64,000 bases of DNA from an uncultured Actinomycetes bacterium (lineage in GTDB: Bacteria > Actinomycetota > Acidimicrobiia > IMCC26256 > PALSA-555). The notes beneath the pieces are model-generated. The model had not been told where the DNA came from. It worked only from the letters and a program-made list of their open reading frames with translations, and did not search any database. Both the position numbers and the translations under genes were made by a program. The stretch is from assembly GCA_903899845.1 (NCBI GenBank), contig CAIUKV010000251.1, positions 5,970 through 69,969 on the forward strand, read 5' to 3'. Position 1 is the stretch's first letter. Each line of letters opens with the position of its first letter. Of this stretch, positions 3,771-55,283 are shown in pieces.

Positions 3771-3772
3771 GC

Positions 3773-25930: not shown

Positions 25931-26122
25931 CTACTCGTCGAACGGCGCGCCGCCGAGGGACCGGATCGCCTTCTCCACCGCCCGGCGGGCCGCCAGGATG
26001 CGCTTCTCGTCGGCGGCCGCGTCGGCGTCGCCCGCCGCCGCCTCGCGGAGCCGGTCGTAGGCGAGGTCGCGGAGGCGCTCCTCGATGCCCACGAGCTGGG
26101 TGACGATCTCGGGGATGCTCAT
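25931..26122 (-). CDS. Hypothetical 63-aa helical protein, translationally coupled to glcF
   Basis: MSIPEIVTQLVGIEERLRDLAYDRLREAAAGD... High GC3. ATGA overlap with the glcF-like stop. Confidence 0.45.
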   Translation of the reverse strand: MSIPEIVTQLVGIEERLRDLAYDRLREAAAGDADAAADEKRILAARRAVEKAIRSLGGAPFDE

Positions 26123-27321
26123 CGGCCCTCCGGGTCGAGCGCGTCGGCGAGGAGCTCCGCGGGGTGGCGGACCTCGAGCCCGGCGGCGCGCAGGTGGAGC
26201 AGGCAGCCGGGGTTCGCCGACGCCACGACCGGGGCCGGCCCGCCCACGGCCCGGATGGCCGCGACCTTGCGGTCGCGCACCGCGCCGGCGAGCTCGGGCT
26301 CCCAGACCGCGAAGGCGCCCCCCGCCCCGCAGCACAGGCCGTCGTCGGCGGTCTCGAGCAGGCGGCACGCCGGGGCGAGCACCGTGCGCACGGGGAGGTG
26401 GGCCCGCTGGACGTGGCGGAGATGACACGGATCCTGCACCACGACCGGAAGTCCGGTGTCGCGCAGCGCCAGCGGCGGCTGCCTGGTGAGCCAGTCGGCG
26501 AGGTCGACCACCCGGGCGGAGAACGCCGCCGCTTCCGGGGTCCCCAGGAGGTGGCCGTAGTCCCGCATCGCCGCGCCGCACCCGGCACTGTCGACGACCA
26601 CGGGCGCGTCGCCGGGCATCGACGCGATCACGCTCCGGGCGAGGCGCTGGGCCGTCGCGGTCCGCCCCGCGTGGACGTGCAGCGCGCCGCAGCAGTCGGC
26701 GCCGGGACCCGGGTGCATGGGGGTCGCGCCCGCGGCCCGCATCACGGCGACCGTGGCCCGGTGCACCGAGCGCTGCCAGGCGTCCATCACGCAGCCGGTG
26801 AGCAGGTAGGCGTCGCCGGTTCCCGGACCGCCGAGGTCGAGCGGTCGCCGCAGCTCGTCGGCGCGCAACGCGGGCACACCCGCCCGCGCGGGCACGAGGC
26901 GCAGTCGCTGCAGCGCCCACAGGGCCCAGGTGGCGGCGCGGAGCACCGGACGCCGGGTGAGCACCCAGCGGTAGGCGACGGCCTCGGCGACCCGGCGCGC
27001 CGGGGCCCGGCGCGCGCCGGGGGGCGCACCGGGCGCCGCCAGCGCCGCGCGGGTCCCCTCCATCAGGCGACCGAAGGGGACGCCCGAGGGACACGCGGCC
27101 TCGCAGCCCCGGCACTGGATGCACGCGTCCATGGCGGCCACGAACGATGCGTCGACCGGGGCACCGTCGAGGTCGACCGCCCGCATCGCGGCGATGCGAC
27201 CCCGGGGCGACGCGATCTCGAGGCCGGTGACGCGGTAGGTCGGGCAGTGCGGCAGGCACAGGCCGCAGGCGACGCAGCTCACGAGCTCGTCGGGGTCGAG
27301 GCCGAGCGCCCGGCCGCTCAC
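26119..27321 (-). CDS. glcF: Glycolate oxidase Fe-S subunit GlcF-like (2x4Fe-4S + CCG domains)
   Basis: GTG 27319-27321 (GTGA overlap). CVACGLCLPHCP and CIQCRGCEAACP. C-terminal CCG-type cysteines. Confidence 0.8.
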   Translation of the reverse strand: MSGRALGLDPDELVSCVACGLCLPHCPTYRVTGLEIASPRGRIAAMRAVDLDGAPVDASFVAAMDACIQCRGCEAACPSGVPFGRLMEGTRAALAAPGAPPGARRAPARRVAEAVAYRWVLTRRPVLRAATWALWALQRLRLVPARAGVPALRADELRRPLDLGGPGTGDAYLLTGCVMDAWQRSVHRATVAVMRAAGATPMHPGPGADCCGALHVHAGRTATAQRLARSVIASMPGDAPVVVDSAGCGAAMRDYGHLLGTPEAAAFSARVVDLADWLTRQPPLALRDTGLPVVVQDPCHLRHVQRAHLPVRTVLAPACRLLETADDGLCCGAGGAFAVWEPELAGAVRDRKVAAIRAVGGPAPVVASANPGCLLHLRAAGLEVRHPAELLADALDPEGR

Positions 27322-28364
27322 GCGGGGCCGCCCACGGGGACCGGGGCCAGGGGCAGCCGGCCCGGGTTGCACTTGCCCGTCGGGTCGAGCGCGTCCTTGA
27401 TCCGGGCCATCAGCGCCCGGTTGGGCAGGTCGGTCCCGAAGCCGTCGAGCGGTCCCGCCTCGCGGAGCAGCCAGCCGCCCGCGGCGTGGGCCACCGTGCG
27501 GGCGGCATCGAGCCCCGCAGCGCTCGGCGCGGCGACGTGCACGGTGCCGACGCCCCCCTCCCCCAGTGCGCCGATCCCGAGCCCGGCGAGGTCGGCGAGC
27601 ACGCGGTCGACCAGCGCGGGACGCACCGAGATGCGCCCCCGGTGGGGGCCGGTGGGCCAGGCCGGCGCCTCGGCGCCGGTCGAGGGGCCCAGGCGGGTCC
27701 GCTCGGCGGCGACGTCCTCGGGGAACCCCTCGAGCAGCACGGTGGTGCCGGTCGGGTCGGTGAGCACCGCGGCGGGCCGGAACGCGCGCCGGAGCACCTC
27801 GGCCGCCGGGACGTCGAGGCGGCGCCACTCGGACGCGGCCGGGCGGGGCTCGCAGCGCAGCGTGACCTGCACCAGCACGCCGAGGGTCCCGAGCGACCCG
27901 ACCATCAGGCGGGCGACGTCGTAGCCGCTCACGTTCTTCACCGTGCGCCCGCCGCCCTTGACCGTGCGGCCGTCGGCGAGCACGAGGTGCACCTCGAGGA
28001 GCCGGTTGCGCAGCGGGCCGTAGCGGAGCCGACGGGGGCCGCTCAGCCCCGCCGCGAGCACGCCGCCCACGGTCGCGGCCGGGTCACGGGGGTCGAGCGG
28101 GCACTGCTGGCCCGCCGCACCCAGGACGGCGTCGAGCTCGCCGACGGTCGTCCCCGCGGCGACGGTGACGGTCAGCTCGGCGGGGTCGTACTCGAGCACC
28201 CCGGACGGGGCCCGCACCTCGGTGCCCGCGGGTGCCGGTCCTCCCACCTCCCAGTGCGTGCGGGAACCCACCGGCACGACGGTCGCGGCGGTGGCCACGG
28301 TCGCGGCCAGGGCCGCGACGGCCTCGGCGACGGCCGGGGCGACGGTCCCTGGGCTCACACCCAC
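27318..28364 (-). CDS. glcE: Glycolate oxidase FAD-binding subunit GlcE-like
   Basis: VVPVGSRTHWEVGG..., TVKNVSGYDVARLMVGSLGTLGV. An alternative GTGA-overlapped start lies at 28358. Confidence 0.8.
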   Translation of the reverse strand: MGVSPGTVAPAVAEAVAALAATVATAATVVPVGSRTHWEVGGPAPAGTEVRAPSGVLEYDPAELTVTVAAGTTVGELDAVLGAAGQQCPLDPRDPAATVGGVLAAGLSGPRRLRYGPLRNRLLEVHLVLADGRTVKGGGRTVKNVSGYDVARLMVGSLGTLGVLVQVTLRCEPRPAASEWRRLDVPAAEVLRRAFRPAAVLTDPTGTTVLLEGFPEDVAAERTRLGPSTGAEAPAWPTGPHRGRISVRPALVDRVLADLAGLGIGALGEGGVGTVHVAAPSAAGLDAARTVAHAAGGWLLREAGPLDGFGTDLPNRALMARIKDALDPTGKCNPGRLPLAPVPVGGPA

Positions 28365-29653
28365 GTCCCTTCGGGGACCCGGCGGACCTCCCCGCAGCGG
28401 CTGCCCCGGGGCAGGACCTTGTCGGGGTTGGCCAGGCCCTGCGGATCGAACGCGTCGCGCAACCGGGCCTGCAGGTCGAGGTCGTCGGGGGTGAAGATCA
28501 GCGGCATGGCGTCGCGCTTCTCCATGCCGATCCCGTGCTCGCCTGAGAGCACGCCGCCCGCGGCCACGCAGGTCCGGAGGATCTCGTCGCCGGCGTCGTG
28601 CACCCGCGACCAGATCCCCGGCTCGCGGGCGTCGAAGACGATGAGGGGGTGGAGGTTGCCGTCCCCCGCGTGGAACACGTTCATCATCGTCAGGCGCTGC
28701 TCGGCCGCGATCTCGTAGACGCGGCGCAGGACGTCGACCAGCTTGGTGCGCGGCACCACCGCGTCGTGGAGGTAGTAGTCCGGGGCGATGCGGGCGATCG
28801 CCCCGAAGGCCGACTTGCGGCCCTTCCAGAGCAGCGCCCGCTCCGCCTCGTCGGCGGCGACCCGGACCGAGCGGGCCCCGTGGGCCCGGGCGACGGCGTC
28901 GATGGCGGCGACCTGCGCGGCGACCCCGTCGGGCAGGCCGTCGACCTCGACCAGGAGCACCGCCGCGGCGTCACGCGGGTAGCCCGCGCCCACGAAGTCC
29001 TCGACCGCGCGCGTGATCTCGGCGTCCATCATCTCGAGCGCTGCGGGAACGATCCCGGCGGCGATGATGCCGCTCACGGTGGCGGCGGCGTCGTCGAGCG
29101 CGCCGAAGTCGCAGAGGAGCGTCCGGACCACCGGGGGGTCGGGCAGGAGGCGGACCGCGATCCGGGCCGCGATGCCCATCGTGCCCTCGCTCCCGACGAA
29201 GCAGCCCCGCAGGTCGTAGCCGGGCACGTCGGGCTCGGTGCCGCCGAGGCGCGCCACCTCGCCGTCGGCGAGCACGGCGTCGACCGCGAGCACGTGGGCC
29301 GAGGTGACCCCCGACGCCAGGCAGTGGGGACCCCCGGCGTTGGTCCCGACGTTGCCGCCGATCGTGCAGGCCTGCTGCGACGACGGATCCGGCGCGTAGT
29401 GCAGCCCGAGGTGCTGGACGGCCCGGGTCAGGTCGAGGTTGAGCACGCCGGGCTCGACCCAGGCGACGCGCTCCACCGGATCGACCTCGAGCACCCGGTT
29501 CATCTGCGTGGTCACCACGACCACGGCGTCGTCGAGCGGGGTGGCGCCGCCGGCGAGGCCGGTGCCGCTCCCCCGCGCCACGAACGGCACGCCGTGGTCG
29601 GCCGCGACCCGGACGGCGGCAGCCACGTCCTCGGTCGAGCGCGGGAAGCACAC
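28355..29653 (-). CDS. glcD: FAD-linked oxidase GlcD-like; the true N-terminus probably extends to about 29779
   Basis: CFPRSTEDVAAAVRVAADHGVPFVARGSGTGLAGGA... The in-frame upstream sequence IAPDALLADLRAALGPDRARAEALELALYARDAGVEQGRAAAV looks like a genuine GlcD N-terminus but has no ATG/GTG/TTG. Confidence 0.85.
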   Translation of the reverse strand: MCFPRSTEDVAAAVRVAADHGVPFVARGSGTGLAGGATPLDDAVVVVTTQMNRVLEVDPVERVAWVEPGVLNLDLTRAVQHLGLHYAPDPSSQQACTIGGNVGTNAGGPHCLASGVTSAHVLAVDAVLADGEVARLGGTEPDVPGYDLRGCFVGSEGTMGIAARIAVRLLPDPPVVRTLLCDFGALDDAAATVSGIIAAGIVPAALEMMDAEITRAVEDFVGAGYPRDAAAVLLVEVDGLPDGVAAQVAAIDAVARAHGARSVRVAADEAERALLWKGRKSAFGAIARIAPDYYLHDAVVPRTKLVDVLRRVYEIAAEQRLTMMNVFHAGDGNLHPLIVFDAREPGIWSRVHDAGDEILRTCVAAGGVLSGEHGIGMEKRDAMPLIFTPDDLDLQARLRDAFDPQGLANPDKVLPRGSRCGEVRRVPEGTWV

Positions 29654-36837: not shown

Positions 36838-38388
36838 TCAGGGATCGCTCAGCGCGTACATGTACCCGCCGCGGGTCCCGACGTAGACGCGGCCCTTCCA
36901 CACCGCGGGGGTCGACTCGATGCAGCCCCCGAGCCGGACCGACCACAGCTCGGGCGGCGACACCGTCGGGTTGCGGACGTCGAACGCCCGCAGCGTGCCC
37001 GAGCAGTCACCCTGGAGCCAGATCCCGTCGACGACGACCGGCGACCCCATGAGCGGGCCGGGCAGCCGCTTCTCCCAGCGGATCTCCCCGGTCCTGCGGT
37101 CCACGGCCACCGCCCGGCCGCTGTACGTGGTGAACAGGGCGACCTCCCCGACCAGCGCCGCGCTGGAGTACACGCCGGCCTGGGCGATCGACGCGTCGGC
37201 GTGCGACCACACCAGCGGGTCGGGCCGGCTGGGGTCCAGCTTGAACAGCTGGCCGACCTGCTTGGACCGGTCCGTGTAGCGCTCCCACTCCGCCCCGAGG
37301 TACAGCATCCCGTCCTCGTCGACCGCGATGGTCCCGTCGGTGTCGTCGCCGGCCCAGAAGCGGAAGGTGCGGGTCGGCGGTCCGGTCCCGGTGCGCACCG
37401 GACCGATGTCCCAGCCCTGCACGAGGCCGCCCGAGTTGGCGAAGTACATCGTGTCGCCCGAGATCGCGACCGAGCCCTCGATCGACAGGCTCGGGCCCCA
37501 GGCCCGCAGCTGCTCGTCGTCCCAGCCCGGCTCGTCGAACACGACCTGGGGCGCGAGCGTCACCCGCCCGTCGGGTCCGTACCCGCGGTTGAGCTTGACG
37601 ACGTAGAAGCGACTGTTCTCCCCGCCCTCGAACAGGTGGTCGTCGAGCACCAGCGCGGTGCTGTCCCAGTCGTCGTTCCAGTAGGTCCGGGAACCGCCGT
37701 ACGCCCAGAGGCGCCACAGCTCGCGGGGCTCGGGAGCGTCGATCGCGATGGCCCGGAAGTAGTCGTCGCGCGAGCCCGTGTAGACGATCGGGTAGCCGTC
37801 GGGGTCGATCGTCACCGACCCCTTGATGATGTCGCCGGTCGGGAACGGGGGCAGGATGTCCTCGCCGGTGACCGCGTCCACGAAGTGGACGGCCCGGTCG
37901 TAGGCCCCGAAGACGAGCCAGGTCCGCCCGCCCCGCTCGAACACCGCGGGCTGCCCGGTCCAGCCGGTGCCGCACCACACCGACGTCTCCGGCCCGTCGA
38001 CCGACTCCGCGCACATGCCCTGCCCCGGGATGCGCCACTGGACCCGGGGCGCCGTGGGCACCGGCCCGGCGCCGTACCAGGTGCGGGTCGGGTTGCCCCG
38101 GAAGGTGAGCAGTCCGGCCACCGTCGCTCCGGGGTAGGGCGCCCCCACCGACCGGGGGTCGACCCAGCCGGGGTAGGTCGTGGTGGTGGTCGTCGGCACC
38201 GTGGTGGCGGGGGGCACGGTCGTCCCCGGGACCGGGGCGGGGCCGCCCGCGGTGGCCCGCCCATCCCCGCCGGCGAGCACCAGGACGGCCGCCGTGCCCC
38301 CGCCGAGGACCACCAGCGCGACCGCGACCGCTCCGATGACGATGCGGCGGGTCCGGCGGCGCCGGCGGCGGTCGGAGCGACGGGCCAC
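36838..38388 (-). CDS. Membrane-anchored PQQ-like/BamB-like beta-propeller repeat protein
   Basis: N-terminal Arg-rich segment plus TM helix, a Thr/Pro linker, and repeated propeller blades (...AVDRRTGEIRWEK...). -10-like TACGGT (38395-38400) lies 6 nt upstream of the GTG. Confidence 0.75.
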   Translation of the reverse strand: MARRSDRRRRRRTRRIVIGAVAVALVVLGGGTAAVLVLAGGDGRATAGGPAPVPGTTVPPATTVPTTTTTTYPGWVDPRSVGAPYPGATVAGLLTFRGNPTRTWYGAGPVPTAPRVQWRIPGQGMCAESVDGPETSVWCGTGWTGQPAVFERGGRTWLVFGAYDRAVHFVDAVTGEDILPPFPTGDIIKGSVTIDPDGYPIVYTGSRDDYFRAIAIDAPEPRELWRLWAYGGSRTYWNDDWDSTALVLDDHLFEGGENSRFYVVKLNRGYGPDGRVTLAPQVVFDEPGWDDEQLRAWGPSLSIEGSVAISGDTMYFANSGGLVQGWDIGPVRTGTGPPTRTFRFWAGDDTDGTIAVDEDGMLYLGAEWERYTDRSKQVGQLFKLDPSRPDPLVWSHADASIAQAGVYSSAALVGEVALFTTYSGRAVAVDRRTGEIRWEKRLPGPLMGSPVVVDGIWLQGDCSGTLRAFDVRNPTVSPPELWSVRLGGCIESTPAVWKGRVYVGTRGGYMYALSDP

Positions 38389-38471
38389 GTCCGGACCGTA
38401 TCCCAGCGCCCGACCCGCCCGGCACCGGGCGCGCGTGCCGGTACCGTCGGGGTCCCGGACGACCTCTGGAG

Positions 38472-40415
38472 GTGCCCGTGTCCGACCGGACCCACGCCCG
38501 ACTGACCACGCCGCTGGTCCGCGACGCCGACCGGCTGGTGCCCGCGTCGTGGGACGTCGCCCTCGACCGTGCCGCGGCCGGGTTCGCGACCGCCCGAGAC
38601 CACCACGGCGCCGACGCCGTGGGCATGTTCTCGTGCTCCAAGGCGACCAACGAGGTGAACTACGCCGCGCAGAAGTTCATGCGCCTGGCGGTGGGCACCA
38701 ACAACATCGATTCCTGCAACCGCACCTGACACGCACCCAGCGTCGTCGGTCTGGCGACGGTCTTCGGGGCCGGGGGCGGCACCAGCAGCTATCGGGAGGT
38801 CGAGGAGGCCGACGTGGTCGTCCTCTGGGGCTCCAACGCGCGTGAGACCCACCCGATCTTCTTCCACCACGTGCTGCGGGCGGTCCGGGCCGGGGCCCGC
38901 CTGGTCGTGGTCGACCCCCGCCGGACCGCGACCGCCGAGTTCGCCGACCTGTGGCTGCCGATCGACGTCGGTGCCGACATCCCGCTCGCCCACGCCATCG
39001 CCCACGAGATCATCGCCGCCGGTCTGGTCCACGAGGAGTTCGTCGCCCGGGCCACCACCGGCTACGCCGAGTTCGCGGCCCAGGTCGCCGACTGGTCCCC
39101 GGAGCGGGCCGAGGCGGTCACCGGGGTGCCCGCCGACCTGGTCCGGGCCGCGGCGCACGCCTATGCGACGGCCCCGAAGGCCCAGCTGTGCTGGACGCTC
39201 GGGATCACCGAGCACCGCAGCGGCGTCGACAACGTGCTCGCGCTCTGCAACCTCGCGCTGCTGTGCGGGCACGTGGGGCGGTGGGGCTCGGGCCTCAGCC
39301 CGCTCCGGGGGCAGAACAACGTCCAGGGCGGCGGCGACATGGGCGCCCTGCCGAACCGGCTCCCCGGGTTCCAGGCCGTGACCGACCCCGAGGCCCGGAC
39401 CCGGGTCGAGGCGGTGTGGGGGCACCCGGTCCCGCCCGAGGACGGCCGCAACCTCACCGAGATGTTCGCGGCGATGGAGACCGGCGACCTGCGCGCCGTC
39501 TACGTGCTCGGGGAGAACCCGGCCCAGTCCGAGGCCGACGTCACCCGGGCCCGGCGGCTCCTCGGTGACCTCGAGCACCTCGTCGTCCAGGACCTGTACC
39601 TGACCCGTACCGCCGAGCTCGCCGACGTCGTGCTGCCCGCGACCGCGGCGTGGTGCGAGGCCGACGGCACCGTGACCAACTCCGAGCGGCGGGTGCAGCG
39701 GGTGCGCGCCGCGGTCCGCCCGCCGCAGGGTGCACGCGACGACCTCGCGATCCTCACGGCCGTCGCCGAGCGCCTCGGCACCCCCATCGGGCCGCCCGAC
39801 CCCGAGACGATGTGGGACGAGCTCCGGCGGGTGTCGCCGCTCCACGCCGGCATGAGCTGGGTCCGCATCGAGGCCCTCGGGGGCATCCAGTGGCCCTGCC
39901 CGTCGGAGACCGGGCTCGAGCCGTCGTTCCTCCACGGGCGCCTCTGGGCCGACGACCCCGCCGAGCGCGGCCGCCCGGCGCCGTTCTCGGTGGTCGAGTG
40001 GGTGCCCCCCGCCGACCCGCTCGCCGCCGACTTCCCGATCCGGCTGACCACGGGCCGCCGCCTCGACTCCTACAACACCGGGGTGCAGACCCGGCGCTTC
40101 TCGTCGCCGTTGCGCTTCGGCGAGACGGTCGACCTCTCCCCCGCCGACGCCGACGCGCTCGGGGTCGCCCCGGGTGAGGTCGTGCGGGTGGTGTCGCGCC
40201 GGGGTGCGGTCGAGGCGCCGGTCCGGATCGACCCGGGCCTGCGTGCCGGCCTCGCCTTCATGACGCTGCACTTCGGCGACGACGTCGACACGAACCGACT
40301 CACCATCGAGGCCGTCGACCCGAAGTCGGGGACGGCCGAGTTCAAGGCCACCGCCGTGCGCATCGAGCGGATCCCGGCGCCGGTGGGCGCCCCGGACGCA
40401 CCGCCGGCCCGGTGA
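38472..40415 (+). CDS. Formate dehydrogenase alpha subunit, Mo/W-bisPGD catalytic fragment, with selenocysteine at TGA 38727-38729
   Basis: The 38472..38729 and 38814..40415 ORFs are in the same frame. Read-through gives NNIDSCNRT-U-HAPSVVGLATVFGAGGGTSSYREVEEADVVVLWGSNARETHPIFFHH, which matches the Sec-His active site of FdhF-type enzymes. It lacks the N-terminal Fe-S region. An alternative start is GTG 38478, after GGAGG. Confidence 0.85.
38741..38759 (+). other. SECIS-like stem-loop, 12 nt downstream of the UGA
   Basis: CGUCGUC-GGUCU-GGCGACG: a 7-bp stem (one G-U pair) with a 5-nt loop containing GU. The loop starts 19 nt after the UGA. Confidence 0.55.
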
Positions 40416-42034
40416 GCGACGTGCGGCCCACCCTCGTGGGTGTCCCGGTGGGCCTCCCCGTCACCCGACCCCGGCGCGACGCCCTCCTGCCCGCGCTGCA
40501 CGAGGCGCACGACGCCGCCGGCTGGCTCGCACCCGAGGTGCTCGACGCGATCGCCGACCGCCTCGGCCTCGGGCGGGCCGAGGTGTTCGGCGTCGCGTCG
40601 TCGTACGCGTCGTTCGCGTTCACGCCCCGGTCCCGCCGCCTGCGCCGGGTGTGCACCGACGTCATGTGCACGGCGGCCGGTGCGGTGCCGCCCGGCGCCG
40701 ACGAGCCCGGCGTGGTGGCCTCCCCGTGCCTGGGCCGCTGCGAGCAGGCGCCGGCGGTGCTCGACACCGAGGGCGGGCGGGCCGTGGTGCCGGTCGCCCC
40801 CGCGCCCGTGCCGCAGCCGGTCTCGGCCCGCACGCTGCTGCGGCGCGTCGGGGTGGTCGACCCCGCCTCGCTCGACGACTACCGCGCCCACGGGGGCTGC
40901 GCCGCGCTCGCCCACGCCGGGCGGATCGGTCCGGCCGCCGTGCGCGCGGCGATCACCGCGTCGGGGCTGACCGGCCGCGGGGGCGCCGCCTTCCCCGCCG
41001 GCCGGAAGTGGGAGGCCGTCGCCGCCGCGTCCGGCGCGCCGAAGTACGTCGTCGCCAACGCCGACGAGTCGGAGCCGGGCACCTTCAAGGACCGGGTCGT
41101 ACTCGAGCACGACCCCTTCGCCGTGGTCGAGGCCATGACCGTGGCGGGCTACGCGGTCGGCGCCGAGGTCGGCTACCTGTACGTGCGCGACGAGTACCCC
41201 GAAGCGATCGCCCGCCTCGAGCACGCCATCGCCGCGGCCGAGACCGCCGGGCTGCTCGGCCCCGACGTCGCCGGGCTCGGGGTGGCATTCCGCATCGAGG
41301 TGCGCCGGGGGGCGGGGGCCTACGTGTGCGGCGAGGAGACCGCGCTCTTCGCGTCGATCGAGGGCTTCCGGGGCGAGCCCCGCACCAAGCCGCCCTACCC
41401 GGTCGACGCCGGGCTCTTCGGCCGTCCGACCCTGGTGCACAACGTCGAGACCCTGGCCAACGTCCTGCGCATCCTCGATCCCGACGGGGCCGCCCCCGAG
41501 ACCAAGCTCTTCTCGGTGTCGGGGGCGGTGGACCGCCCCGGGTGCTACGAGGTGCCCATGGGGACCACCCTGGCCGCGCTGCTCGACCTCGCCGGCGGTG
41601 TGCCCGTGGGCCGCCGGCTGCAGGCGGTCCTGCTCGGCGGCGCGGCCGGGACCTTCGTGCCGCCCGGGGAGATCGACGTCCCGCTCACGGTGGAGGCCAC
41701 CCGGGCCATCGGGGCCACGGTGGGATCGGGCGCGGTGTTCGTGTGCGACGACACCACCGACCTCGCCGCGGCCGTCCTCGGGATCGCCACCTTCTTCCGG
41801 GAGGAGTCCTGCGGCCAGTGCGTGCCCTGCCGGGTCGGCACCGTGCGCCAGGAGGAGGCCCTCCACCGCCTCGTCCACGGCCGCCCCCTCGGCTCGGTGG
41901 CCGAGGAGGTCCAGCGCCTGCGCGACGTCGGCGCCGCGATGCGCGACGCCTCGATCTGCGGCCTCGGCCAGTTCGCCTGGAACGCGGTCGAGGGCGCCAT
42001 CGACCGCTTCGGCGTCTTCGGGGAGCGGTCGTGA
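40412..42034 (+). CDS. NuoE-NuoF fusion (NAD(P)H-binding FMN/Fe-S diaphorase subunit of the formate dehydrogenase)
   Basis: GTGA overlap. NuoE cysteines (CTDVMC...CLGRC). NuoF motifs GRGGAAFPAGRKW, ANADESEPGTFKDR, YVCGEETAL, ESCGQCVPCR. Confidence 0.88.
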   Translation: MSDVRPTLVGVPVGLPVTRPRRDALLPALHEAHDAAGWLAPEVLDAIADRLGLGRAEVFGVASSYASFAFTPRSRRLRRVCTDVMCTAAGAVPPGADEPGVVASPCLGRCEQAPAVLDTEGGRAVVPVAPAPVPQPVSARTLLRRVGVVDPASLDDYRAHGGCAALAHAGRIGPAAVRAAITASGLTGRGGAAFPAGRKWEAVAAASGAPKYVVANADESEPGTFKDRVVLEHDPFAVVEAMTVAGYAVGAEVGYLYVRDEYPEAIARLEHAIAAAETAGLLGPDVAGLGVAFRIEVRRGAGAYVCGEETALFASIEGFRGEPRTKPPYPVDAGLFGRPTLVHNVETLANVLRILDPDGAAPETKLFSVSGAVDRPGCYEVPMGTTLAALLDLAGGVPVGRRLQAVLLGGAAGTFVPPGEIDVPLTVEATRAIGATVGSGAVFVCDDTTDLAAAVLGIATFFREESCGQCVPCRVGTVRQEEALHRLVHGRPLGSVAEEVQRLRDVGAAMRDASICGLGQFAWNAVEGAIDRFGVFGERS

Positions 42035-42915
42035 CCGACGGCGCCGGGAACCCGGCCCCCGCACCCGGGGCGACCGTCACCGTCACCGTCGACGGGCGCA
42101 CGGTGGAGGTTCCCGACGGCGCGACCGTCCTCGACGCGTGCACCGCGGCCGGGGTGGACACCCCGACCCTGTGCTTCGGCGACACGATCACCGCCCGCAA
42201 CGTGTGCCGGATCTGCGTCGTCGACGTGGCCGGGAGCCGGGCCCTCGTGCCGTCGTGCTCCCGGCGGGCCGAGCCCGGGATGGAGATCGGCACCGACACG
42301 CCCCGCGTCCGCCACGCCCGGCGCATGGTGCTCGAGCTGCTCGCCAGCAGCGTCGACCTGTCGCTGACCGACCACGTGGAGGAGTGGAGCATCCGCTACG
42401 GGGCCGACCCCGACCGCTTCGGGCCCGACGCCGCCACGGTGGCCCAGCCCGTGAAGGTCGACAACGACTGCTTCGTGCGCGACTACTCGCGCTGCATCCT
42501 GTGCTACCAGTGCACTGACGCCTGCGGCGAGCAGTGGCAGCACACCTTCGCGATCGCGATCGCGGGCCGGGGCTTCGGGGCCACGGTCTCCACCGAGCAC
42601 GACGTCACTCTCCCCGACTCGGCCTGCGTGTACTGCGGGAACTGCATCGAGGTGTGCCCGACCGACGCTCTGATGTTCCGCACCGAGTTCGACCTCCGCA
42701 CGATGGGGGCCTGGGCGCCCGAGCGCCAGACCCGCACCGACACCATCTGCGCCTTCTGCGGCGTGGGCTGCACCCTGACGCTGCACGTGCAGCGCGGCGC
42801 GACCGACGACGAGGGCGACCGGATCGTCAAGGTGACGTCCCCGCACGGGAGCAGCGTGACCGGCGGGAACCTGTGCATCAAGGGCCGGTTCGGCGCCGGC
42901 CACGTCCATTCCTGA
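42031..42915 (+). CDS. Formate dehydrogenase alpha subunit, N-terminal Fe-S fragment (NuoG-like 2Fe-2S, 4Fe-4S clusters and the MopB CxxCxxxC cluster)
   Basis: GTG 42031 (GTGA overlap). CFGDTITARNVCRIC, CILCYQCTDAC, CVYCGNCIEVCP, CAFCGVGCTLTLHV...GNLCIKGRFGAGHVHS-stop. It ends where the 38472 product begins (RLTTPLVR). Confidence 0.85.
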   Translation: MTDGAGNPAPAPGATVTVTVDGRTVEVPDGATVLDACTAAGVDTPTLCFGDTITARNVCRICVVDVAGSRALVPSCSRRAEPGMEIGTDTPRVRHARRMVLELLASSVDLSLTDHVEEWSIRYGADPDRFGPDAATVAQPVKVDNDCFVRDYSRCILCYQCTDACGEQWQHTFAIAIAGRGFGATVSTEHDVTLPDSACVYCGNCIEVCPTDALMFRTEFDLRTMGAWAPERQTRTDTICAFCGVGCTLTLHVQRGATDDEGDRIVKVTSPHGSSVTGGNLCIKGRFGAGHVHS

Positions 42916-42924
42916 GCCGGCCGC

Positions 42925-43683
42925 TCAGAACGTGCCGCCGTCCACCTGGATGCGCTGGTCGTTGACGTAGCGGGCCGCGTCGGACACGAGCCAGGCCACC
43001 ACCTCGGCGACCTCCTCCGGGCTGCACACGTGCCCGAACGCCATGCGCTCGTCGAGCGAGTGGATGTCGTCGCCCGCACCCATGACCGCCTTGGCGAGAC
43101 GCCGGCCCATGTCGGTGTCGACCAGGCCCGGGGCGACGACGTTCACGTGGATGCCGTGGCGGCGCTCCTCCTTGGCCAGGGTGCGGGCCAGAGCCTCCAG
43201 CGCGGCCTTCGCCATGTTGTACGGCGCGGACCACCCGGCCATCGCGCTGGCCGCCACGCTCGAGATCATGACGACGTCGCCCCGGGGGCGGGTCCGCATG
43301 CTCGGGACCACCTGGCGGGCGATCGTGAACGCGGCGAAGGCGTGGGTGCGCCAGAGTCGCTCGATCTCGGCCGGGTCGGTGTCGACGACCGCGTTGCCCC
43401 GGCTGGCGATGCCGGCGTTGTGGACGAAGGTGTCGACGTAGCCGAAGTCGGCGAGGACGGCGTCGGTCATGGCGACGCAGGCGTCCGCATCGTCGACCGA
43501 GGCGGCGTACACCTCGGCGCGCCGGCCCATCGCCCGCACCAGGTCGGCGGTGGTGCGGGCGGCCTCCTCGTCGCGGCGGTAGTTGACCGCCACGTCGAAT
43601 CCCTGTCCCGCCAAGGCCAGGGTGATCGCGGCCCCGATCCCCCGTCCGCCCCCGGTCACCAGCGCCACCCGCGGTTCGTGCAT
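42925..43683 (-). CDS. SDR-family oxidoreductase (FabG-like)
   Basis: From the internal ATG: VALVTGGGRGIGAAI...HNAG...YNMAKAAL. SD GAGGAG upstream. Confidence 0.85.
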   Translation of the reverse strand: MHEPRVALVTGGGRGIGAAITLALAGQGFDVAVNYRRDEEAARTTADLVRAMGRRAEVYAASVDDADACVAMTDAVLADFGYVDTFVHNAGIASRGNAVVDTDPAEIERLWRTHAFAAFTIARQVVPSMRTRPRGDVVMISSVAASAMAGWSAPYNMAKAALEALARTLAKEERRHGIHVNVVAPGLVDTDMGRRLAKAVMGAGDDIHSLDERMAFGHVCSPEEVAEVVAWLVSDAARYVNDQRIQVDGGTF

Positions 43684-46419: not shown

Positions 46420-48924
46420 ATGGTGAACGACAACGTGGCCGCAATGCTCCAGGCCCGGGCGGTCGCGGAACCCGACGGGATCGTCGTGGTCGACGAGCAC
46501 GGGCCGATCACGCTCGGGGAGCTCGACGCACTGACGGGGACCTTCGCCCGGCTGCTGACGGAACGAGTCGGAGTACGAACCCACCCGACCGCCGCCGCCG
46601 GCTCGCCGCCGTTGCCGATCGTCGTCGGGGCCGACCGCTGGTCGCTGGTGGCGCTGCTGGGGGCGGTCCGGGCCGGGATCCCGCACGCCCCGCTCCCGTC
46701 CGACCAGCCCGCCGCCCGGCTCGAGGCGCTGCTCGACCGACTGGGCCGCCCCTCCGTCGCGCTGGTGGACCCGGCCTTCCCCGGCCGGCTGCCGGACGGG
46801 GTCGAGGTGCTTCGCCCGGCGTTGGTGCCCGACGACCCCATCGCCCCGTGCGCCGTCGAGGACCCGGAAGCGGTGGCCTGTGTGCTCTTCACGTCCGGAT
46901 CGACCGGTCGGCCGAAGGGCGTGGTCTACGAGTGGCGCAACCTCGCCTGGATGGCGGCCTCGTCGCTCGGCGATCCCGGCTCCCACTGGGGCTCGGTGCT
47001 CCCGTTCCACTGGGCCGGCGGGTACTTCAACGTCGTGCGCGCGGCTGCCACCGCGACGCTGTCGATCGTCCCGCCCGGGTTGACGAACGCGGAGCGGCTC
47101 CTCGACTGGTACGACCGAGGGAGCGTCGAGATCGTGTCGATCCCCCCGAGCATGCTGGCGCAGCTCGTGGACCGCTGGCCCGAGGGCCGCCGTCTCGAGC
47201 AGGTGCGCCAGGTCCGCATCGGCGGCGAGAAGCTCGGCTGGGAGATCGTGCCCGCCGTTCGGCGGCTCGTGACGGAGCGCGCCGTCATCAACTTCTCGTA
47301 CGGCAGCACCGAGGGTGGGACCGTCGCGGTCTGCCGCATGATCATCGGACCGGACGACGAGGTCGGAGTGGGTCCGATCCCGATCGGCCGGTGGGAGGAA
47401 CCGGGGCGGGGCCGCCTCGAGCCGGTCGCCGGCGGTGACGACCTCGCCGAGATCGTGGTCACGGGCAAGATCGCCCGCGGCTACTGGGACGACCCCGAGG
47501 AGCATCGGGCGCGCTTCGGCCACGACCCCGACGGCACCCGGATCCTGCGCACCGGCGATCTCGCCCGCGTCGGTGACGACGGGCTGATCCAACTGGTCGG
47601 TCGGGCCGACGACCTGGTCAAGATCCGCGGCATCCGCGTGGAGCCCGCCGAGGTCGAACTGGCCTTCCACGCGATCCCGGGCGTCCGCGAGGCGGTGGTG
47701 CTGCCCCACGAGAGCGAGCGCGGCATCCGTCTCGTCGGGCACCTCGTGCTCGACGATCCCGACCTGTCCGCGGACGTCGTCCGGCACACCCTCTCCGAGC
47801 GTCTCCCGCCGCACCTGGTCCCCAGCCCCCTCGTGGTCCACGACGCGCTGCCGACACTGCCGAACGGCAAGGTCGACCGTCGTGCGCTGCGGAGCGCGCC
47901 GGTCGAACCGTGGCGCGCCGCGCCACCCCGCCCGCCGGCCGACGCGCTCGAGGCCGACGTCCTCGTCATGTGCGCCGAGGCGCTCGAGCTCGACGAGGTC
48001 GGCGCCGACGACGACCTCTGGGAGATCGGGTTGGACTCGCTCCGGGCGGTGGAGCTCGCCGCCGCGATCTCCGAGCTCGGCTGGGGACCGTTCGACCCCT
48101 CGCTCCCGCTGCAGCAGGTCAGCGCCGCCGCCATCGCCGAGGTGCTGCGCCGGGGTGCGGCCGACGAGGACCCCCACCGTCCGTCGGAGGTCGTCACGCT
48201 GGTGCCGGTGAGTTCGGGGGACCACACCCCGATCGTGGCGGTGCCCGGCGCCGGCGCCACCGCCTACTTCTGGCTGGCCCGGGTCCTGGGCCCGGAGCAG
48301 CCGTTCACCGTGGTCGAGGCCCACGGGCTCCACACCCCGGGCCGTCCGGACCGCAGCGTCGCGGCCGCCGCCCGCCGCACGGCGCGCCGTGTGGCGGACG
48401 TCCACGCCGACGGCCCCGTGCTGCTCGTCGGGCACTCGGCGGGCGGTGCGGTCGCCTACGAGGCCGGGCGCCTGCTCCACGCCGCGGGCCGTGACGTGCG
48501 GGTCGCGGTGCTGGACCTCGTCCCCTCGACGCTCCGTCCCGCGTCGGGGGGTCCGGTTCCGCCCGCTCCCGTCGGGGCGGCGCGCGGTCGACGGACGCGG
48601 GGCCCGGGGCGACTCCCGCACCTGCTCCGGCGCGCGGTCGACGAGGGCCGGGTCCGGTTCCGCGCCCTTCGGCCGGGACCGCCGAGTCGCAGCCTGATGC
48701 GCTTCCGTGCCTTCACGCTGATCGGCACCCGCGCGGTGCGGAGGTACCAGCCCGGCCCTGCGACCTTCCCGCTCCTCGTCGTGCACACCGAGGCCACGAC
48801 GGGCGCCGCCTGGGCGGGCGTCGCCCCCGATCTCACGGTCGCCGCCACGACCGGGAGCCACCTCTCGATGCTGCGACCGCCCCACGTCCGCCACACGGCC
48901 GACGCCCTGCGCAGCCTCGTCTGA
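46420..48924 (+). CDS. Single-module NRPS-like enzyme, adenylation-thiolation-thioesterase (A-T-TE)
   Basis: A3 LFTSGSTGRPKGV, A5 NFSYGSTEG, A7 RTGDLARV, A8 GRADDLVKIRGIRVEPAEVE, A10 PNGKVDRRAL. Carrier motif LWEIGLDSLRAVEL. TE motifs VGHSAGGAVAYE and GSHLSML. Confidence 0.87.
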   Translation: MVNDNVAAMLQARAVAEPDGIVVVDEHGPITLGELDALTGTFARLLTERVGVRTHPTAAAGSPPLPIVVGADRWSLVALLGAVRAGIPHAPLPSDQPAARLEALLDRLGRPSVALVDPAFPGRLPDGVEVLRPALVPDDPIAPCAVEDPEAVACVLFTSGSTGRPKGVVYEWRNLAWMAASSLGDPGSHWGSVLPFHWAGGYFNVVRAAATATLSIVPPGLTNAERLLDWYDRGSVEIVSIPPSMLAQLVDRWPEGRRLEQVRQVRIGGEKLGWEIVPAVRRLVTERAVINFSYGSTEGGTVAVCRMIIGPDDEVGVGPIPIGRWEEPGRGRLEPVAGGDDLAEIVVTGKIARGYWDDPEEHRARFGHDPDGTRILRTGDLARVGDDGLIQLVGRADDLVKIRGIRVEPAEVELAFHAIPGVREAVVLPHESERGIRLVGHLVLDDPDLSADVVRHTLSERLPPHLVPSPLVVHDALPTLPNGKVDRRALRSAPVEPWRAAPPRPPADALEADVLVMCAEALELDEVGADDDLWEIGLDSLRAVELAAAISELGWGPFDPSLPLQQVSAAAIAEVLRRGAADEDPHRPSEVVTLVPVSSGDHTPIVAVPGAGATAYFWLARVLGPEQPFTVVEAHGLHTPGRPDRSVAAAARRTARRVADVHADGPVLLVGHSAGGAVAYEAGRLLHAAGRDVRVAVLDLVPSTLRPASGGPVPPAPVGAARGRRTRGPGRLPHLLRRAVDEGRVRFRALRPGPPSRSLMRFRAFTLIGTRAVRRYQPGPATFPLLVVHTEATTGAAWAGVAPDLTVAATTGSHLSMLRPPHVRHTADALRSLV

Positions 48925-50781: not shown

Positions 50782-51486
50782 ATGTCGAAGCGCACCAACC
50801 GTCCCCGTTCCTTCCGTGCCCGCGTCGCGGGCACCGTGATCGTCGTCGTCGGCCTGCTGACCGTGGTCGGCGCCGGCACCTTCGCCACCTTCAACGCCCG
50901 CACCACCAACCCCGACAACCTGTTCGCGACCGGGAGCCTGGTGCTCGGCAACACCAAGACGTCCGGCGCCACCTGCCTCTCGACCGCCGGCGGCACCACC
51001 GACGCGAACGTCAACGACGCCTGTGACCAGCTGTTCGACCTGACGGTGCGCAAGCCGGGCGACTCGGCCACCGCCCGCCTGTCGGTGGCCAACGTCGGAT
51101 CGGTCGCCGCCTCGGCGCTGCGGGTCTTCAGTGCCCGCTGCGACGACGCCGACGTCGCCGCGGAGACCTACCACGGCACGGGGAGCCCCTGCGGACAGGT
51201 GCAGCTCGTGATCCAGCGCTACAGCGACGCCACCTTCGCCACGCCCGTGGAGTGCGTGTACGGCGGCGGCACCGCCACCACCTGCGACTTCAGCGACACG
51301 ACCAAGACGCTGGCCGCGTTCCGGGCCGTCCACGCCGACGCCGCGTCGGGTCGGACCGTCGGCACCGGCCTCGCCGCCGGCGCCACCCGGCACCTCGAAG
51401 TCCGGCTCCTCCTGCCGGTCACGGCCGACAACTCGCTCCAGGGTCGCCAGGCGACCGTGGACCTGACCTGGTACGCCGAGCAGTAG
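50782..51486 (+). CDS. TasA/camelysin-like secreted protein with a SipW-type signal peptide
   Basis: ...VVGAGTFATFNARTTNPDNLFATGSLVL parallels B. subtilis TasA GGGTWAAFND.......FASGTLDL. SD GAGGAG upstream. Confidence 0.75.
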   Translation: MSKRTNRPRSFRARVAGTVIVVVGLLTVVGAGTFATFNARTTNPDNLFATGSLVLGNTKTSGATCLSTAGGTTDANVNDACDQLFDLTVRKPGDSATARLSVANVGSVAASALRVFSARCDDADVAAETYHGTGSPCGQVQLVIQRYSDATFATPVECVYGGGTATTCDFSDTTKTLAAFRAVHADAASGRTVGTGLAAGATRHLEVRLLLPVTADNSLQGRQATVDLTWYAEQ

Positions 51487-52073
51487 TGCCGTCGGCGTCC
51501 ACCGCCGACGCCGGTCGGGGTCGACGGATCCGGTGGGCCCGCCGGATCCGCGACCTCGGCGGCGCCGCGCTCCTCCTGGTCCTCCTCGTCGGCTTCGTGC
51601 TCGTGACGGCGGGTCCCCGGGTGCTGCCGTACCAGGTGCGCTACGTGCGCTCGGGCAGCATGGCGCCCGCGGTGCCGGTCGGCGCGCTGGCGGTGTACGT
51701 CCCGACCCGGGCGGCCGACCTCGTGCCCGGTGACGTGATCGCGTTCGTTCCCCCCGGTCGGTCCACCGAGGTCGTCGCCCACCGGATCGTCGACGTCGAG
51801 GCCACGCCGGACGGGCGCGCGTTCGTCACCCGGGGCGACGCCAACGCCCGGCCCGACACCTGGCGGGTGCCCGCCCGTGGGACCGGATGGCGCCAGACGC
51901 TGGCGCTGCCCTACCTGGGCTACGCGCTGGCCGCCCTCGTGCGGCCCGTCGTCCGCCTCGGCCTGCTGGGGGCCCTCACCGTCGCGGTCGCGGCCGCGCT
52001 CCTCGTCCGGCTGTGGCGACCCGGACGCCGGCCCGTTCCGGACCGGCCCGGGGCACCGGGGACGCACGGGTGA
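51486..52073 (+). CDS. Signal peptidase I, archaeal/ER (SipW) type
   Basis: GTG 51486 overlaps the TAG of the upstream gene. TM helix. Motifs RSGSMAP, VVAHRIV, TRGDAN. C-terminal TM helix. Confidence 0.8.
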   Translation: MPSASTADAGRGRRIRWARRIRDLGGAALLLVLLVGFVLVTAGPRVLPYQVRYVRSGSMAPAVPVGALAVYVPTRAADLVPGDVIAFVPPGRSTEVVAHRIVDVEATPDGRAFVTRGDANARPDTWRVPARGTGWRQTLALPYLGYALAALVRPVVRLGLLGALTVAVAAALLVRLWRPGRRPVPDRPGAPGTHG

Positions 52074-52969
52074 GACCAGCCGGCCGGGGCCGGGCGGTCG
52101 CGACGGCCATGGCCGGCGTCGCCCTGCTCGCCCTCGTGGCCGCATCACCCCGGGGGGTCCAGGGCCGGTTCCACGCCCAGGTGTCGGCGATCGACACCGT
52201 GCTCGCACTCGACGCGCTCGAGCCCGTGGGCGCGCTCGCTGCCGAACCCAGGGGCACGGGCGTGGCTCTCTCGTGGACCGCCGGCCGCGCCGGGGCCACC
52301 CACCGTGTCTCGGTCGGTGCGGCCGACGCCTGGGGTGGGTGCGCCGGCACCGGGTTCACGACGGTGGGGGTCACCGACGCGACCGCGTCGACCGATCCAC
52401 AGCCGCCCGGCCCGGCGGGCGCCCGGGTCTGCTACCGGGTGGAGACCGTCGACGGGCCGTGGTCCAGCGTCACGGGGAACCCGACCGTGGCCGTGCAGGT
52501 CGGGTTCGTCGTCGCCGCGGTCGGGGTCGCCAACGGCGGCACCGCGGGCCGCCTCGACGTCGGCGACCGGATCGTGGTCTCGTTCAACCAGCCCGTCGAT
52601 CGCGCGTCGGGACCGGTCGCCACCGACACCGTCTGCACCACGGCGACCCTCGTCGTGCTCGCCGCCACCCGCACCGCGGGCACCTGCGCGGCGGGCGAGG
52701 CGAGCCGACTCGGACGGCTCGAGGGCGGGACGGTCGGCGCCACCACGCGGTGGACGGCGACCTACGCGTGGTCCGACGGGGACCGGGTCCTCACCGTCAC
52801 GCTCACCAACCGGGTCGGCGGGCCGAACTCCGCGTTCACGGGGGGTGCGTGGTCGTTCCGGCCGAGCGCCGCCGCCGATGGTCCGCGCGCCGCCACCGGC
52901 GGGGTGCCGGTCTGCACCGCCGGCGCGGTCCCGGGTCCGTGTCTCCCGGAGGCGACCGGCGCGTTCTAG
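52070..52969 (+). CDS. Secreted hypothetical protein (FN3-like region), third gene of the SipW cluster
   Basis: GTG 52070 (GTGA overlap). Hydrophobic N-terminus AMAGVALLALVAASPRGVQGRFHAQVSA. GVALSWTAG...YRVETVDGPWSS resembles FN3. Confidence 0.55.
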   Translation: MRPAGRGRAVATAMAGVALLALVAASPRGVQGRFHAQVSAIDTVLALDALEPVGALAAEPRGTGVALSWTAGRAGATHRVSVGAADAWGGCAGTGFTTVGVTDATASTDPQPPGPAGARVCYRVETVDGPWSSVTGNPTVAVQVGFVVAAVGVANGGTAGRLDVGDRIVVSFNQPVDRASGPVATDTVCTTATLVVLAATRTAGTCAAGEASRLGRLEGGTVGATTRWTATYAWSDGDRVLTVTLTNRVGGPNSAFTGGAWSFRPSAAADGPRAATGGVPVCTAGAVPGPCLPEATGAF

Positions 52970-53032
52970 GCGGGTCGTGCACCCGGATCGTCCACCCGGG
53001 CGTGGACCGGGTGCCCGGGATCGGGCGGTAGC

Positions 53033-53836
53033 GTGCGGTCCCGGATGGCCGTCCTCGTCACCCTCCTCGCGGTCGTGCTCGGACTCGTGGTCGTGCTCGT
53101 CGCCGGGCTCTTGCGCAGCCACGCCGAGATCCTGCGCGCCCTGCACGACCTCGGCGTCGACCTCGACCCCGCCGCGGCGCCGACGTCGGCCCCCATCCGG
53201 TCGATCCCGCTCACCGCGGGTCCCCCCCGCACCGCCACCGACGTCAGCGGCACCACGCCCACGGGCGACGCGCTGCACCTGACCGTCACGCCGGCGGCGC
53301 ACCCGACCCTGCTGGCCTTCCTGACCAGCGGCTGCACGTCGTGCCTGGAGTTCTGGCACGCCTTCGCCGCCGGCGGCCCCGACCTCCCCGGCGACACGCG
53401 CCTCGTCGTGGTCACCAAGGGTCCGGAGGCCGAGAGTGTGGCCGCCCTGCGCAGTCTCGCCCCCGCCGGGCTCCCCGTCGTGATGTCGACCGCGGCCTGG
53501 GAGGCCTACGACGCGCCGGTGGCCCCGTTCTTCGTCCTGGTCGACGGTCGCACCGGGACGGTGGTCGGCGAGGGCGCGGCCTCCACCTGGCCCCAGGTCG
53601 TGTCGCTGATGACCCAGGCCATGGCCGACGCCGGGATCGCCGAGCCCGCCGCCGGCGGGCTCGAGGGGCCGCGGCGCCGGCGGGCCCCGGGCCGGCCCCG
53701 GGCCGACGCCGACCGCGAGGCCCAGGTCGACCGCGACCTCATGGCGGCGGGCATCCTGCCCGGCGACCCCCGCCTCTACGTGCTCCCCGACGCCCCCGAC
53801 GCCGACCCCGGCCCGACCGCCGGCCCGACTCCGTGA
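53033..53836 (+). CDS. MauD-like membrane-anchored thioredoxin-fold protein (CTSC motif) with a disordered tail
   Basis: N-terminal TM helix AVLVTLLAVVLGLVVVLVAGLL. PTLLAFLTSGCTSCLEFW. Confidence 0.65.
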   Translation: MRSRMAVLVTLLAVVLGLVVVLVAGLLRSHAEILRALHDLGVDLDPAAAPTSAPIRSIPLTAGPPRTATDVSGTTPTGDALHLTVTPAAHPTLLAFLTSGCTSCLEFWHAFAAGGPDLPGDTRLVVVTKGPEAESVAALRSLAPAGLPVVMSTAAWEAYDAPVAPFFVLVDGRTGTVVGEGAASTWPQVVSLMTQAMADAGIAEPAAGGLEGPRRRRAPGRPRADADREAQVDRDLMAAGILPGDPRLYVLPDAPDADPGPTAGPTP

Positions 53837-54765: not shown

Positions 54766-55283
54766 GCGTCTGGGCGGGCCCCTTCGCCCTCGCCGCGGTG
54801 CTGCTCGTGGTCGCGGGCGCGGCCAAGGCGGTCTCGCCGACCGCCACCGCCGGCGCGCTGCGCGCGCTCGGGCTCCCCGGGCGCCCGGTGTCGGTGCGGA
54901 TCGGTGGTGCCGCCGAGGCCCTGCTCGGCGCGGCGGCGCTCGCGACCGGATGGGCCCCGTTCGTGCTCCTGGTCGGAGCGTCGTACCTGGGGTTCGCGGG
55001 CTTCGTGCTCGGCGCCCGGCGGGCCGGCGTCCCGGTCGCCTCGTGCGGGTGCCTGGGCCGCGTCGACACCCCGCCCCACGCCGTGCACGTGGTCGGCAAC
55101 CTGCTGTGCGTCGGGGCCGCGCTCGGGGCGGCCCTGACCGGGAGCCCCCCGATCGGGTCGGTCCTCGCCGACCAGCCGCTGGGCGGTGTGCCCTTCGTGG
55201 TGCTCCTCGGGGTCGGGGTGGGTGCCGCGACCCTGGCCATGGCCGCCCTCCCTCGGGCCCTGACGGCGGCGAGGCCCCGGTGA
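54762..55283 (+). CDS. MauE/DoxX-family redox-associated membrane protein
   Basis: GTG 54762 (GTGA overlap). 4 TM helices. The SCGCLG motif resembles the CGCFG of the MauE family. Confidence 0.7.
   Translation: MSVWAGPFALAAVLLVVAGAAKAVSPTATAGALRALGLPGRPVSVRIGGAAEALLGAAALATGWAPFVLLVGASYLGFAGFVLGARRAGVPVASCGCLGRVDTPPHAVHVVGNLLCVGAALGAALTGSPPIGSVLADQPLGGVPFVVLLGVGVGAATLAMAALPRALTAARPR

Follow-up and report, generated by a model that had tools for sequence, protein, structure and literature searches.

The locus described here raises the question of whether the alpha subunit of a formate dehydrogenase can be encoded by two separate genes, placed in permuted order around the gene of the diaphorase partner, and still belong to one enzyme. 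It lies in a stretch of 64,000 nucleotides (nt) from an uncultured Actinomycetes bacterium of the Acidimicrobiia lineage (contig CAIUKV010000251.1, positions 5,970 to 69,969; hereafter the window), which has a G+C content of about 75% and in which three densely packed genes on the + strand, here called A, B and C, span 38472-42915. Family and structure comparisons suggest that the three products very probably make up a soluble NAD+-linked, selenocysteine (Sec)-containing Mo/W formate dehydrogenase of the FdsABG or Fdh1AB kind, the alpha subunit of which is made as two polypeptides. The features of the locus that the argument needs are the following.

38468..38472, + strand: Shine-Dalgarno-like GGAGG ahead of gene A, read from the sequence; it overlaps the GTG at 38472
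38472..40415, + strand: gene A, predicted catalytic Mo/W-bis-pyranopterin subunit of the formate dehydrogenase, 647 codons including one UGA
39306..39329, + strand: RGQNNVQG motif with the conserved active-site arginine (R279) of formate dehydrogenases, from the sequence and its relatives
40412..42034, + strand: gene B, fusion of a NuoE-like [2Fe-2S] part with a NuoF-like flavin mononucleotide (FMN)/NAD(H) and [4Fe-4S] part, 540 residues
42031..42915, + strand: gene C, Fe-S subunit of 294 residues with one [2Fe-2S] site and three [4Fe-4S] sites
42733..42912, + strand: molybdopterin-type [4Fe-4S] domain (cluster FS0, or A1) at the C-terminal end of C, residues 235-294

The split itself is evident from the domain content of A and C. 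Protein A has a complete MopB catalytic core in its Pfam matches, as the match to PF00384 (Molybdopterin; E 5e-70) begins at residue 10 with profile position 1 and PF01568 (Molydop_binding; E 1e-25) occupies residues 524-627, and the same search found no Fe-S domain in gene A. Protein C contains Fer2_4, two 4Fe-4S ferredoxin motifs and PF04879 (Molybdop_Fe4S4); the last is matched over positions 3-55 of 55, with the final profile position at residue 294 and the stop codon directly behind it, and its cluster ligands are C240, C243, C247 and C282 (CxxCxxxC...C). In one-piece enzymes, the catalytic module opens with this FS0 domain, which takes up ~60 residues. The NCBIfam model TIGR01591 (Fdh-alpha, 672 positions) is likewise divided between the two proteins, with positions 1-49 on C and 51-672 on A, and because model positions 1-50 sit on C, protein A scores 626.9 bits and misses the equivalog cut-off of 666.25. 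The original prediction had proposed, from the letters and open reading frames alone, that the subunit is split after its MopB [4Fe-4S] motif, and the end of C in PF04879 together with the start of A at position 1 of PF00384 bears this out. The cut thus sits on the boundary between two Pfam domains, PF04879 and PF00384; it falls within "domain I", we presume, only by the structural domain definition of FdhF.

The two halves are also exactly complementary. When the sequences of C and A were joined by hand, the joined query aligned in a single stretch with residues 16-934 of the FdsA protein of Rhodobacter capsulatus (6tg9_A; E 2e-166), without interruption with 9wxb_B, and again in one stretch with residues 62-982 of Fdh1A of Methylorubrum extorquens (7e5z_A), and residues 4-689 of E. 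coli FdhF (1aa6_A) aligned across the C/A joint from the FS0 domain onward. At the joint, ...KGRFGAGHVHS at the end of C and MPVSDRTHARLTTPLVRD at the beginning of A align with ...KGRFAYGYATH-RD-RILKPMIRE, with about 7 extra residues, an overlap of 0 and a loss of 0, so that the alignment check which the original prediction called for revealed neither overlap nor gap relative to intact alpha subunits. In one-piece relatives from other phyla, C likewise continues directly into A. The nearest of the one-piece alpha subunits are at most ~37% identical to C in pairwise BLASTP and ~45% identical to A, and a search of a representative library with C returned mostly fragments, its one-piece relatives being at most ~43% identical to C.

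The order of the genes is permuted as first described, with the catalytic part encoded first, the NuoE/F diaphorase fusion second and the Fe-S part last, and the GTGA overlaps said to join all three were found at both junctions: the GTG start of gene B overlaps the stop of gene A (40412-40415), and that of gene C overlaps the stop of gene B (42031-42034). For gene A, the in-frame GTG at 38478, 5 nt past GGAGG, is the likelier start compared with the GTG at 38472. There is no in-frame start codon upstream of 38472, which makes a hidden Fe-S extension on gene A impossible. On both sides the neighbouring genes are on the opposite strand, one at 36838-38388 upstream of A and another downstream of C.

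This arrangement is shared far beyond the window. In a survey with one genome per species, which gave at least 585 confirmed matches, gene order was read in the 80 best loci, and every locus among these with enough flank (~76) had the order A-B-C. The carriers include Streptomyces, Nonomuraea, Amycolatopsis, Nocardiopsis, Thermopolyspora, Herbidospora, Sphaerisporangium and metagenome-assembled genomes (MAGs) of Acidimicrobiia, as well as single MAGs labelled Vulcanimicrobiota and Anaerolineaceae. The same order was found in ~21 metagenome contigs of sufficient length and in a divergent relative that is 44% identical to C (P0168). The best 120 database hits to C are all 273-310 residues long and have no PF00384. 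The overlap between the stop of B and the start of C is 4 nt in 90/102 loci, and A/B junctions across related loci are mostly between -4 and +6 nt. A split but unpermuted layout B-C-A was not found among distant C-like proteins, of which P0226 is cut by contig ends. We therefore take the layout to be the norm in a large actinobacterial clade comprising hundreds of species, and we regard the split, permuted architecture as old and selected, neither a product of decay nor an artefact. The claim that the arrangement is stable and not a recent disruption has held up well, given the shared order, the recurring B/C overlap, the invariant cluster ligands and an independent assembly, the last two of which are discussed below.

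The neighbours of the operon vary. In relatives with cysteine at the active-site position (Cys-type), fdhD directly follows C in 64/77 cases, vs 2/21 for the Sec-type relatives, indicating that the Cys/Sec switch was accompanied by a changed operon content. Near the split operon of an Actinomadura locus (L004 1-3165) are genes for a thiamine pyrophosphate enzyme and a CoA-transferase, in a pattern of oxalate breakdown, and for MoeA, and near that of a divergent relative (L166 868-2216) are genes for formate-tetrahydrofolate ligase and FolD. These differing neighbours suggest that formate sources differ between lineages.

Gene A of the window also contains an in-frame TGA exactly at the codon of the metal ligand, with a hairpin directly behind it. 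The split and the gene order of the original prediction stood, and this codon and its hairpin were absent from it. The features concerned are these.

38727..38729, + strand: in-frame TGA in the motif NNIDSCNRT-U-HAPS, at the Mo-ligand Cys/Sec position (Sec86); the catalytic His codon is 38730-38732
38733..38770, + strand: SECIS-like hairpin (SECIS, selenocysteine insertion sequence), from pair counts on 71 sequences, the contrast of Sec-type with Cys-type relatives, and folds
38733-38737 with 38766-38770, + strand: lower stem of the hairpin
38741-38747 with 38753-38759, + strand: upper stem of the hairpin
38748-38752, + strand: apical loop GGUCU of the hairpin, with GGUC 21-24 nt from the U of UGA

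Among genome relatives, the codon at the Sec position is TGC in 51, TGT in 15 and TGA in 6, the last comprising five MAGs of the Acidimicrobiia lineage and one with no label beyond Actinomycetota. Metagenome relatives of the N-terminus of A with the complete motif have TGA in 72/72 cases. The TGA is thus kept in 78 relatives, in which the reading frame is preserved past it and protein identity is 60-90% on both sides. The best 120 protein hits to the part of A behind the TGA are 501-566 residues long, from which it follows that gene callers cut the relatives at the same codon. In the window, the open reading frame listing and public gene calls shorten A to 533 residues because of the in-frame TGA at 38727-38729. 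Public gene calls give this product as 38814-40415, starting past the TGA (also in ERZ1426840, L165), and protein databases thereby lose the first 85 codons of gene A and the selenocysteine.

The most powerful test of the hairpin was the contrast between Sec-type and Cys-type relatives, which in our view is the strongest evidence for it. Of the Sec-type sequences, 67/68 can form every one of the six inner pairs in the upper stem, and of the Cys-type sequences 0/59 can; the loop reads GGTCT in 67/68 of the former vs 6/59 of the latter, despite the identical Gly-Leu that is encoded. In the 71 Sec-type sequences, 93.5% of cells are paired compared with 89.1% after shuffling (0/500 shuffles reach the observed value), slid partners give 26-70%, and double changes occur at three pairs. 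The SECIS sequence of E. coli fdhF, which is present in 5,420 genomes, has GGUC equally spaced from UGA (21-24 nt from the U), and, as in the window, its hairpin begins ~11 nt past UGA. The intact hairpin in 67/68 TGA-type and 0/59 Cys-type relatives points to gene A being a selenoprotein gene, in which UGA would be decoded as Sec via the downstream hairpin. A Sec-containing formate dehydrogenase is already known in Actinobacteria, in the form of the mycobacterial FdoG-type enzyme (PMC13449736).

That the enzyme is a formate dehydrogenase is supported by family scores, by the active-site signature and by the position of fdhD after C in most Cys-type relatives. The best family of protein A is TIGR01591, with 627 bits compared with 396 bits for the next family, NasC. 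Protein A carries U86-H87 and R279-G-Q, which is the "CH...RGQ" signature of formate dehydrogenases (defined in PMC8808070) with Sec for Cys. Gene B has the domains PF01257 (NuoE-type 2Fe-2S), PF01512 (NuoF FMN/NADH), PF10531 (SLBB) and PF10589 (NuoF 4Fe-4S) in Pfam, and its residues 17-533 align at near full length with Fdh1B of M. extorquens (7e5z_B). All eight of its cluster ligands (Cys 81/86/106/110 and 467/470/473/516) stay unchanged across 88 homologues, and in C all 16 cluster-ligand cysteines are invariant in 102 homologues. The region of C that aligns with FdsA residues 16-300 is the NuoG/HoxU-like N-terminal part, and C keeps the ligands for clusters A1, A2, A3 and A5. The motif of the His-ligated cluster A4, HxxxCxxCxxxxxC, occurs in 0/102 C homologues and is missing from C itself. 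In the formate dehydrogenase of R. capsulatus, electrons run along a chain of bis-MGD (MGD standing for molybdopterin guanine dinucleotide), A1 (FS0), A2, A3, A5 (a [2Fe-2S] cluster), B6 and FMN (Radon et al. 2020, PMC7171172), and G7 and A4 are off this pathway, A4 being bound by His117 and Cys121/124/130 at the dimer interface (PMC7171172). The missing His-ligated cluster, like the fdhD that is not adjacent to the operon, had been overlooked in the original prediction, which had recognised the 2Fe-2S and 4Fe-4S region of C.

From these comparisons we infer that A, B and C form a heterotrimer, in which A would assemble physically with B-C and NAD+ would be the acceptor; the metal, the Sec insertion and the benefit of the split are proposed on the same footing. 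The UGA at 38727 would be recoded as Sec by the hairpin directly downstream, and protein A would oxidise formate at a Mo or W centre that has Sec as a ligand and is formed with Sec86, His87 and the arginine of RGQ. Since FS0 and the pterin are on different proteins, the first transfer of electrons has to bridge two subunits: the electrons would pass from A to the FS0 cluster on C, run via the clusters of C to the [4Fe-4S] cluster of B, and then reach FMN and NAD+. This path would be the MGD-A1-A2-A3-A5-B6-FMN chain of the R. capsulatus enzyme minus the off-pathway A4 at the dimer interface, and an A4-mediated dimer such as that of FdsABGD would be unexpected for the A-B-C enzyme. A possible benefit of the split is that the cofactor subunit could mature separately, with the ratio of B to C fixed by the overlapping stop and start.

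Several observations weigh against this reading. The hairpin of the window itself is no more stable than shuffles (z = -0.02 at 75% G+C); we relied on the comparison of Sec-type with Cys-type relatives instead. One lower-stem pair in the hairpin of the window is an A/G mismatch, no SECIS or other Rfam family was found in the whole window at the gathering score or in 38650-38850 at a permissive one, and the covariation of the hairpin may come partly from shared ancestry and codon constraints. Searches of the 64-kb window found none of selA, selB, selD, tRNA-Sec and fdhD, nor any fdhD-like open reading frame. As for linkage, two metagenome contigs (L152, L155) show neither B nor C in the 1.6-3 kb downstream of gene A, and in two others (L089, L090) an unrelated 491-residue gene stands between A and B; in two more (L104, L158) the downstream sequence is too short to judge the linkage of A to B and C. 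The survey of related genomes for split and order, proposed along with the original prediction, gave A-B-C wherever the flank was long enough, L152 and L155 apart. Unlinked A genes can be reconciled with separate polypeptides and leave room for other partners. The intervening protein (L089 4149-5624, L090 5340-5816) has a signal-peptide-like N-terminus, as in secreted proteins.

The best-surviving rival explanation is that two systems are merely adjacent, B-C being a HoxFU-like diaphorase with another partner and A an Fe-S-free molybdoenzyme that works alone or with another donor. The first ~220 residues of C do resemble HoxU and hydrogenase Fe-S domains (NF005745, E 4e-34), the unlinked A genes of L152 and L155 would suit this explanation, and Fe-S-free MopB enzymes such as the dimethyl sulfoxide reductase DorA exist. 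However, the molybdopterin-type Fe4S4 domain retained in C is complete and invariant and is not known to serve any purpose apart from a pterin subunit, C and A fit an intact subunit without gap or overlap, and the genes are linked in all loci with enough flank apart from the two mentioned, mostly with the short A/B junctions given above. We consider two adjacent systems unlikely. Among the 52 other called genes of the window, Pfam found no second MopB gene and no molybdenum cofactor genes.

Much less probable is a decaying or disrupted gene, in which the TGA would be a true stop and the split the breakage of a formerly intact alpha gene, with no enzyme made. Open reading frame finders and public gene calls do end at the TGA, and no Sec machinery is visible within the window. 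However, the TGA sits exactly at the catalytic Cys/Sec codon and is kept in 78 independent sequences, the protein being 60-90% identical on either side of it, the hairpin is conserved in TGA forms only, the cluster ligands are all invariant, and the split and the gene order are common to two actinobacterial classes, all of which makes decay very hard to believe. Although the window derives from a metagenome assembly, an assembly artefact or a recent local rearrangement of the contig has a practically negligible chance, as the DNA of a second sample (contig L165) matches the window at 99.98% identity over 39031-43384, covering both junctions and speaking against the misassembly considered earlier, and the same order recurs in more than 95 other loci, finished genomes included.

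The preferred reading, one NAD+-linked enzyme with a divided alpha subunit, can be compared with known systems. FdsABG(D), the soluble NAD+-dependent Mo enzyme of R. capsulatus and Cupriavidus necator (6tg9/6tga, 6vw7), has the same cofactor chain, has the domains of C and A joined in that order in FdsA, and shares with the A-B-C enzyme the NuoF-like FMN/[4Fe-4S] subunit and the active site of Cys/Sec-His plus Arg. FdsA is one polypeptide encoded in an fdsGBACD operon, whereas the alpha subunit of the window takes two genes in the order A-B-C; FdsABG(D) has the A4 cluster at the dimer interface and a Cys ligand, whereas the window enzyme lacks A4, would have a Sec ligand and has NuoE and NuoF fused. 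No FdsD gene was seen beside the A-B-C operon. The beta subunit of Fdh1AB, the W formate dehydrogenase of M. extorquens (7e5z, 7vw6), is also a NuoE/NuoF fusion, and the segment of Fdh1A that aligns to the A4 region is likewise without cysteines, whereas its alpha subunit is undivided and has Cys as ligand, that of the window being split with a predicted Sec ligand. The genes of Fdh1AB are in the order beta then alpha. E. coli FdhF (formate dehydrogenase H) has Sec at the same position (R-U-H) and a GGUC loop placed as in the window hairpin, while the stem sequences of its SECIS are unlike those of the window hairpin; FdhF is one polypeptide with its own FS0 and no NuoG-like extension, and its electrons go to hydrogenase 3, not to NAD+.

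Partial precedents exist for dividing such enzymes. The formylmethanofuran dehydrogenase FwdB/FwdD (FmdB/FmdD) is a MopB enzyme with a catalytic-subunit domain as a separate polypeptide, but there the C-terminal cap (Molydop_binding) is split off, FS0 stays with the core and the gene order is unpermuted. This type of cap split was not found in gene A, in which PF01568 is retained; TIGR03129 weakly matches protein A. In HylABC/FdhF2-type and hydrogen-dependent CO2 reductase (HDCR) complexes of anaerobes (such as 7qv7), a NuoG-like Fe-S protein is separate from the catalytic FdhF. The FdhF of these complexes keeps FS0, and 7qv7_S aligns from residue 232 of the joined query, FS0 included, whereas the cut in the window comes after FS0. 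To our knowledge, in every MopB enzyme with an FS0 cluster this cluster is on the pterin-bearing polypeptide.

How the split and the order arose can be considered in more specific terms, and we put forward one such account tentatively, as a whole rather doubtful. Under this account, the split is functional and not a neutral fission: B and C would be assembled beforehand into an NAD(H)/Fe-S module with a free FS0 "plug", and the Fe-S-free A would mature separately, undergoing pterin insertion, sulfuration and Sec decoding before docking later, and would perhaps be exchangeable among paralogous A proteins, with the gene order reached via tandem duplication and removal of the outer halves. That A stands alone in L152 and L155 is a hint in this direction. 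The permuted order could have arisen if a B-(C+A) or (C+A)-B operon was first duplicated in tandem and its outer halves were then lost, and such a route, if true, would be the equivalent, on the scale of an operon, of circular permutation by duplication. Alternatively, the order could have come from fission followed by relocation of A. A protein of 1405 residues from another contig (P0134, L169 41-4258) is a head-to-tail C-A-C-A fusion of two NuoG-extended alpha subunits with the second A incomplete; separate NuoE and NuoF genes follow it, its lineage is unrelated, and a cluster of the N5/A4 type is still present. It is the sole item that suggests the duplication route, and we do not count it as evidence for that route.

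Other genes of the window deserve a brief description. A Pup-proteasome cluster on the - strand (230-8297) marks the contig as Actinomycetota; it comprises a DUF3866 protein (230-1282), a member of the Pup ligase family (1323-2855), proteasome subunits (3093-3776, 3773-4585), a second Pup-ligase-family gene that is likely a depupylase (4895-6382) and a proteasomal AAA ATPase (6429-8297). A gene on the + strand at 22529-24904 encodes a double radical-SAM protein of 791 residues of the CofG/CofH type (FbiC, F420 synthesis). Some 9 kb upstream of genes A, B and C is a trio resembling glycolate oxidase GlcD/GlcE/GlcF (26119-29653, - strand), consisting of an FAD-linked oxidase, a FAD_binding_4 protein and a CCG/4Fe-4S protein. 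Downstream, 46420-48924 (+ strand) encodes a stand-alone protein of 834 residues with adenylation, carrier protein and thioesterase parts. At 50836-53836 and 55280-57108 (+ strand), six called genes have a strong codon-position G+C bias and no Pfam match at E 1e-4, and they adjoin genes with Fasciclin and MauE domains.

We found no description of the split layout in the searchable open literature, including the recent formate dehydrogenase reviews PMC10385643 and PMC13397495 and also PMC8808070. As the layout is widespread in public genomes, we would regard it not as a new system but as a variant of a known enzyme that lacks recognition in the searchable literature, and we expect that molybdoenzyme specialists will find it moderately surprising. 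In annotation pipelines, C receives no name beyond "2Fe-2S iron-sulfur cluster-binding protein" and Sec-type A is cut at the TGA, so surveys of formate oxidation in soil Actinomycetota may under-count or mis-size the enzyme. The A-B-C locus could offer a clear case for the study of operon permutation, and its Fe-S-free catalytic subunit is a possible system for studying cofactor insertion and sulfuration. In addition, B-C may be a detachable NAD(H)/Fe-S module of aerobic actinomycetes, which would possibly be useful for the engineering of CO2-reducing formate dehydrogenases.

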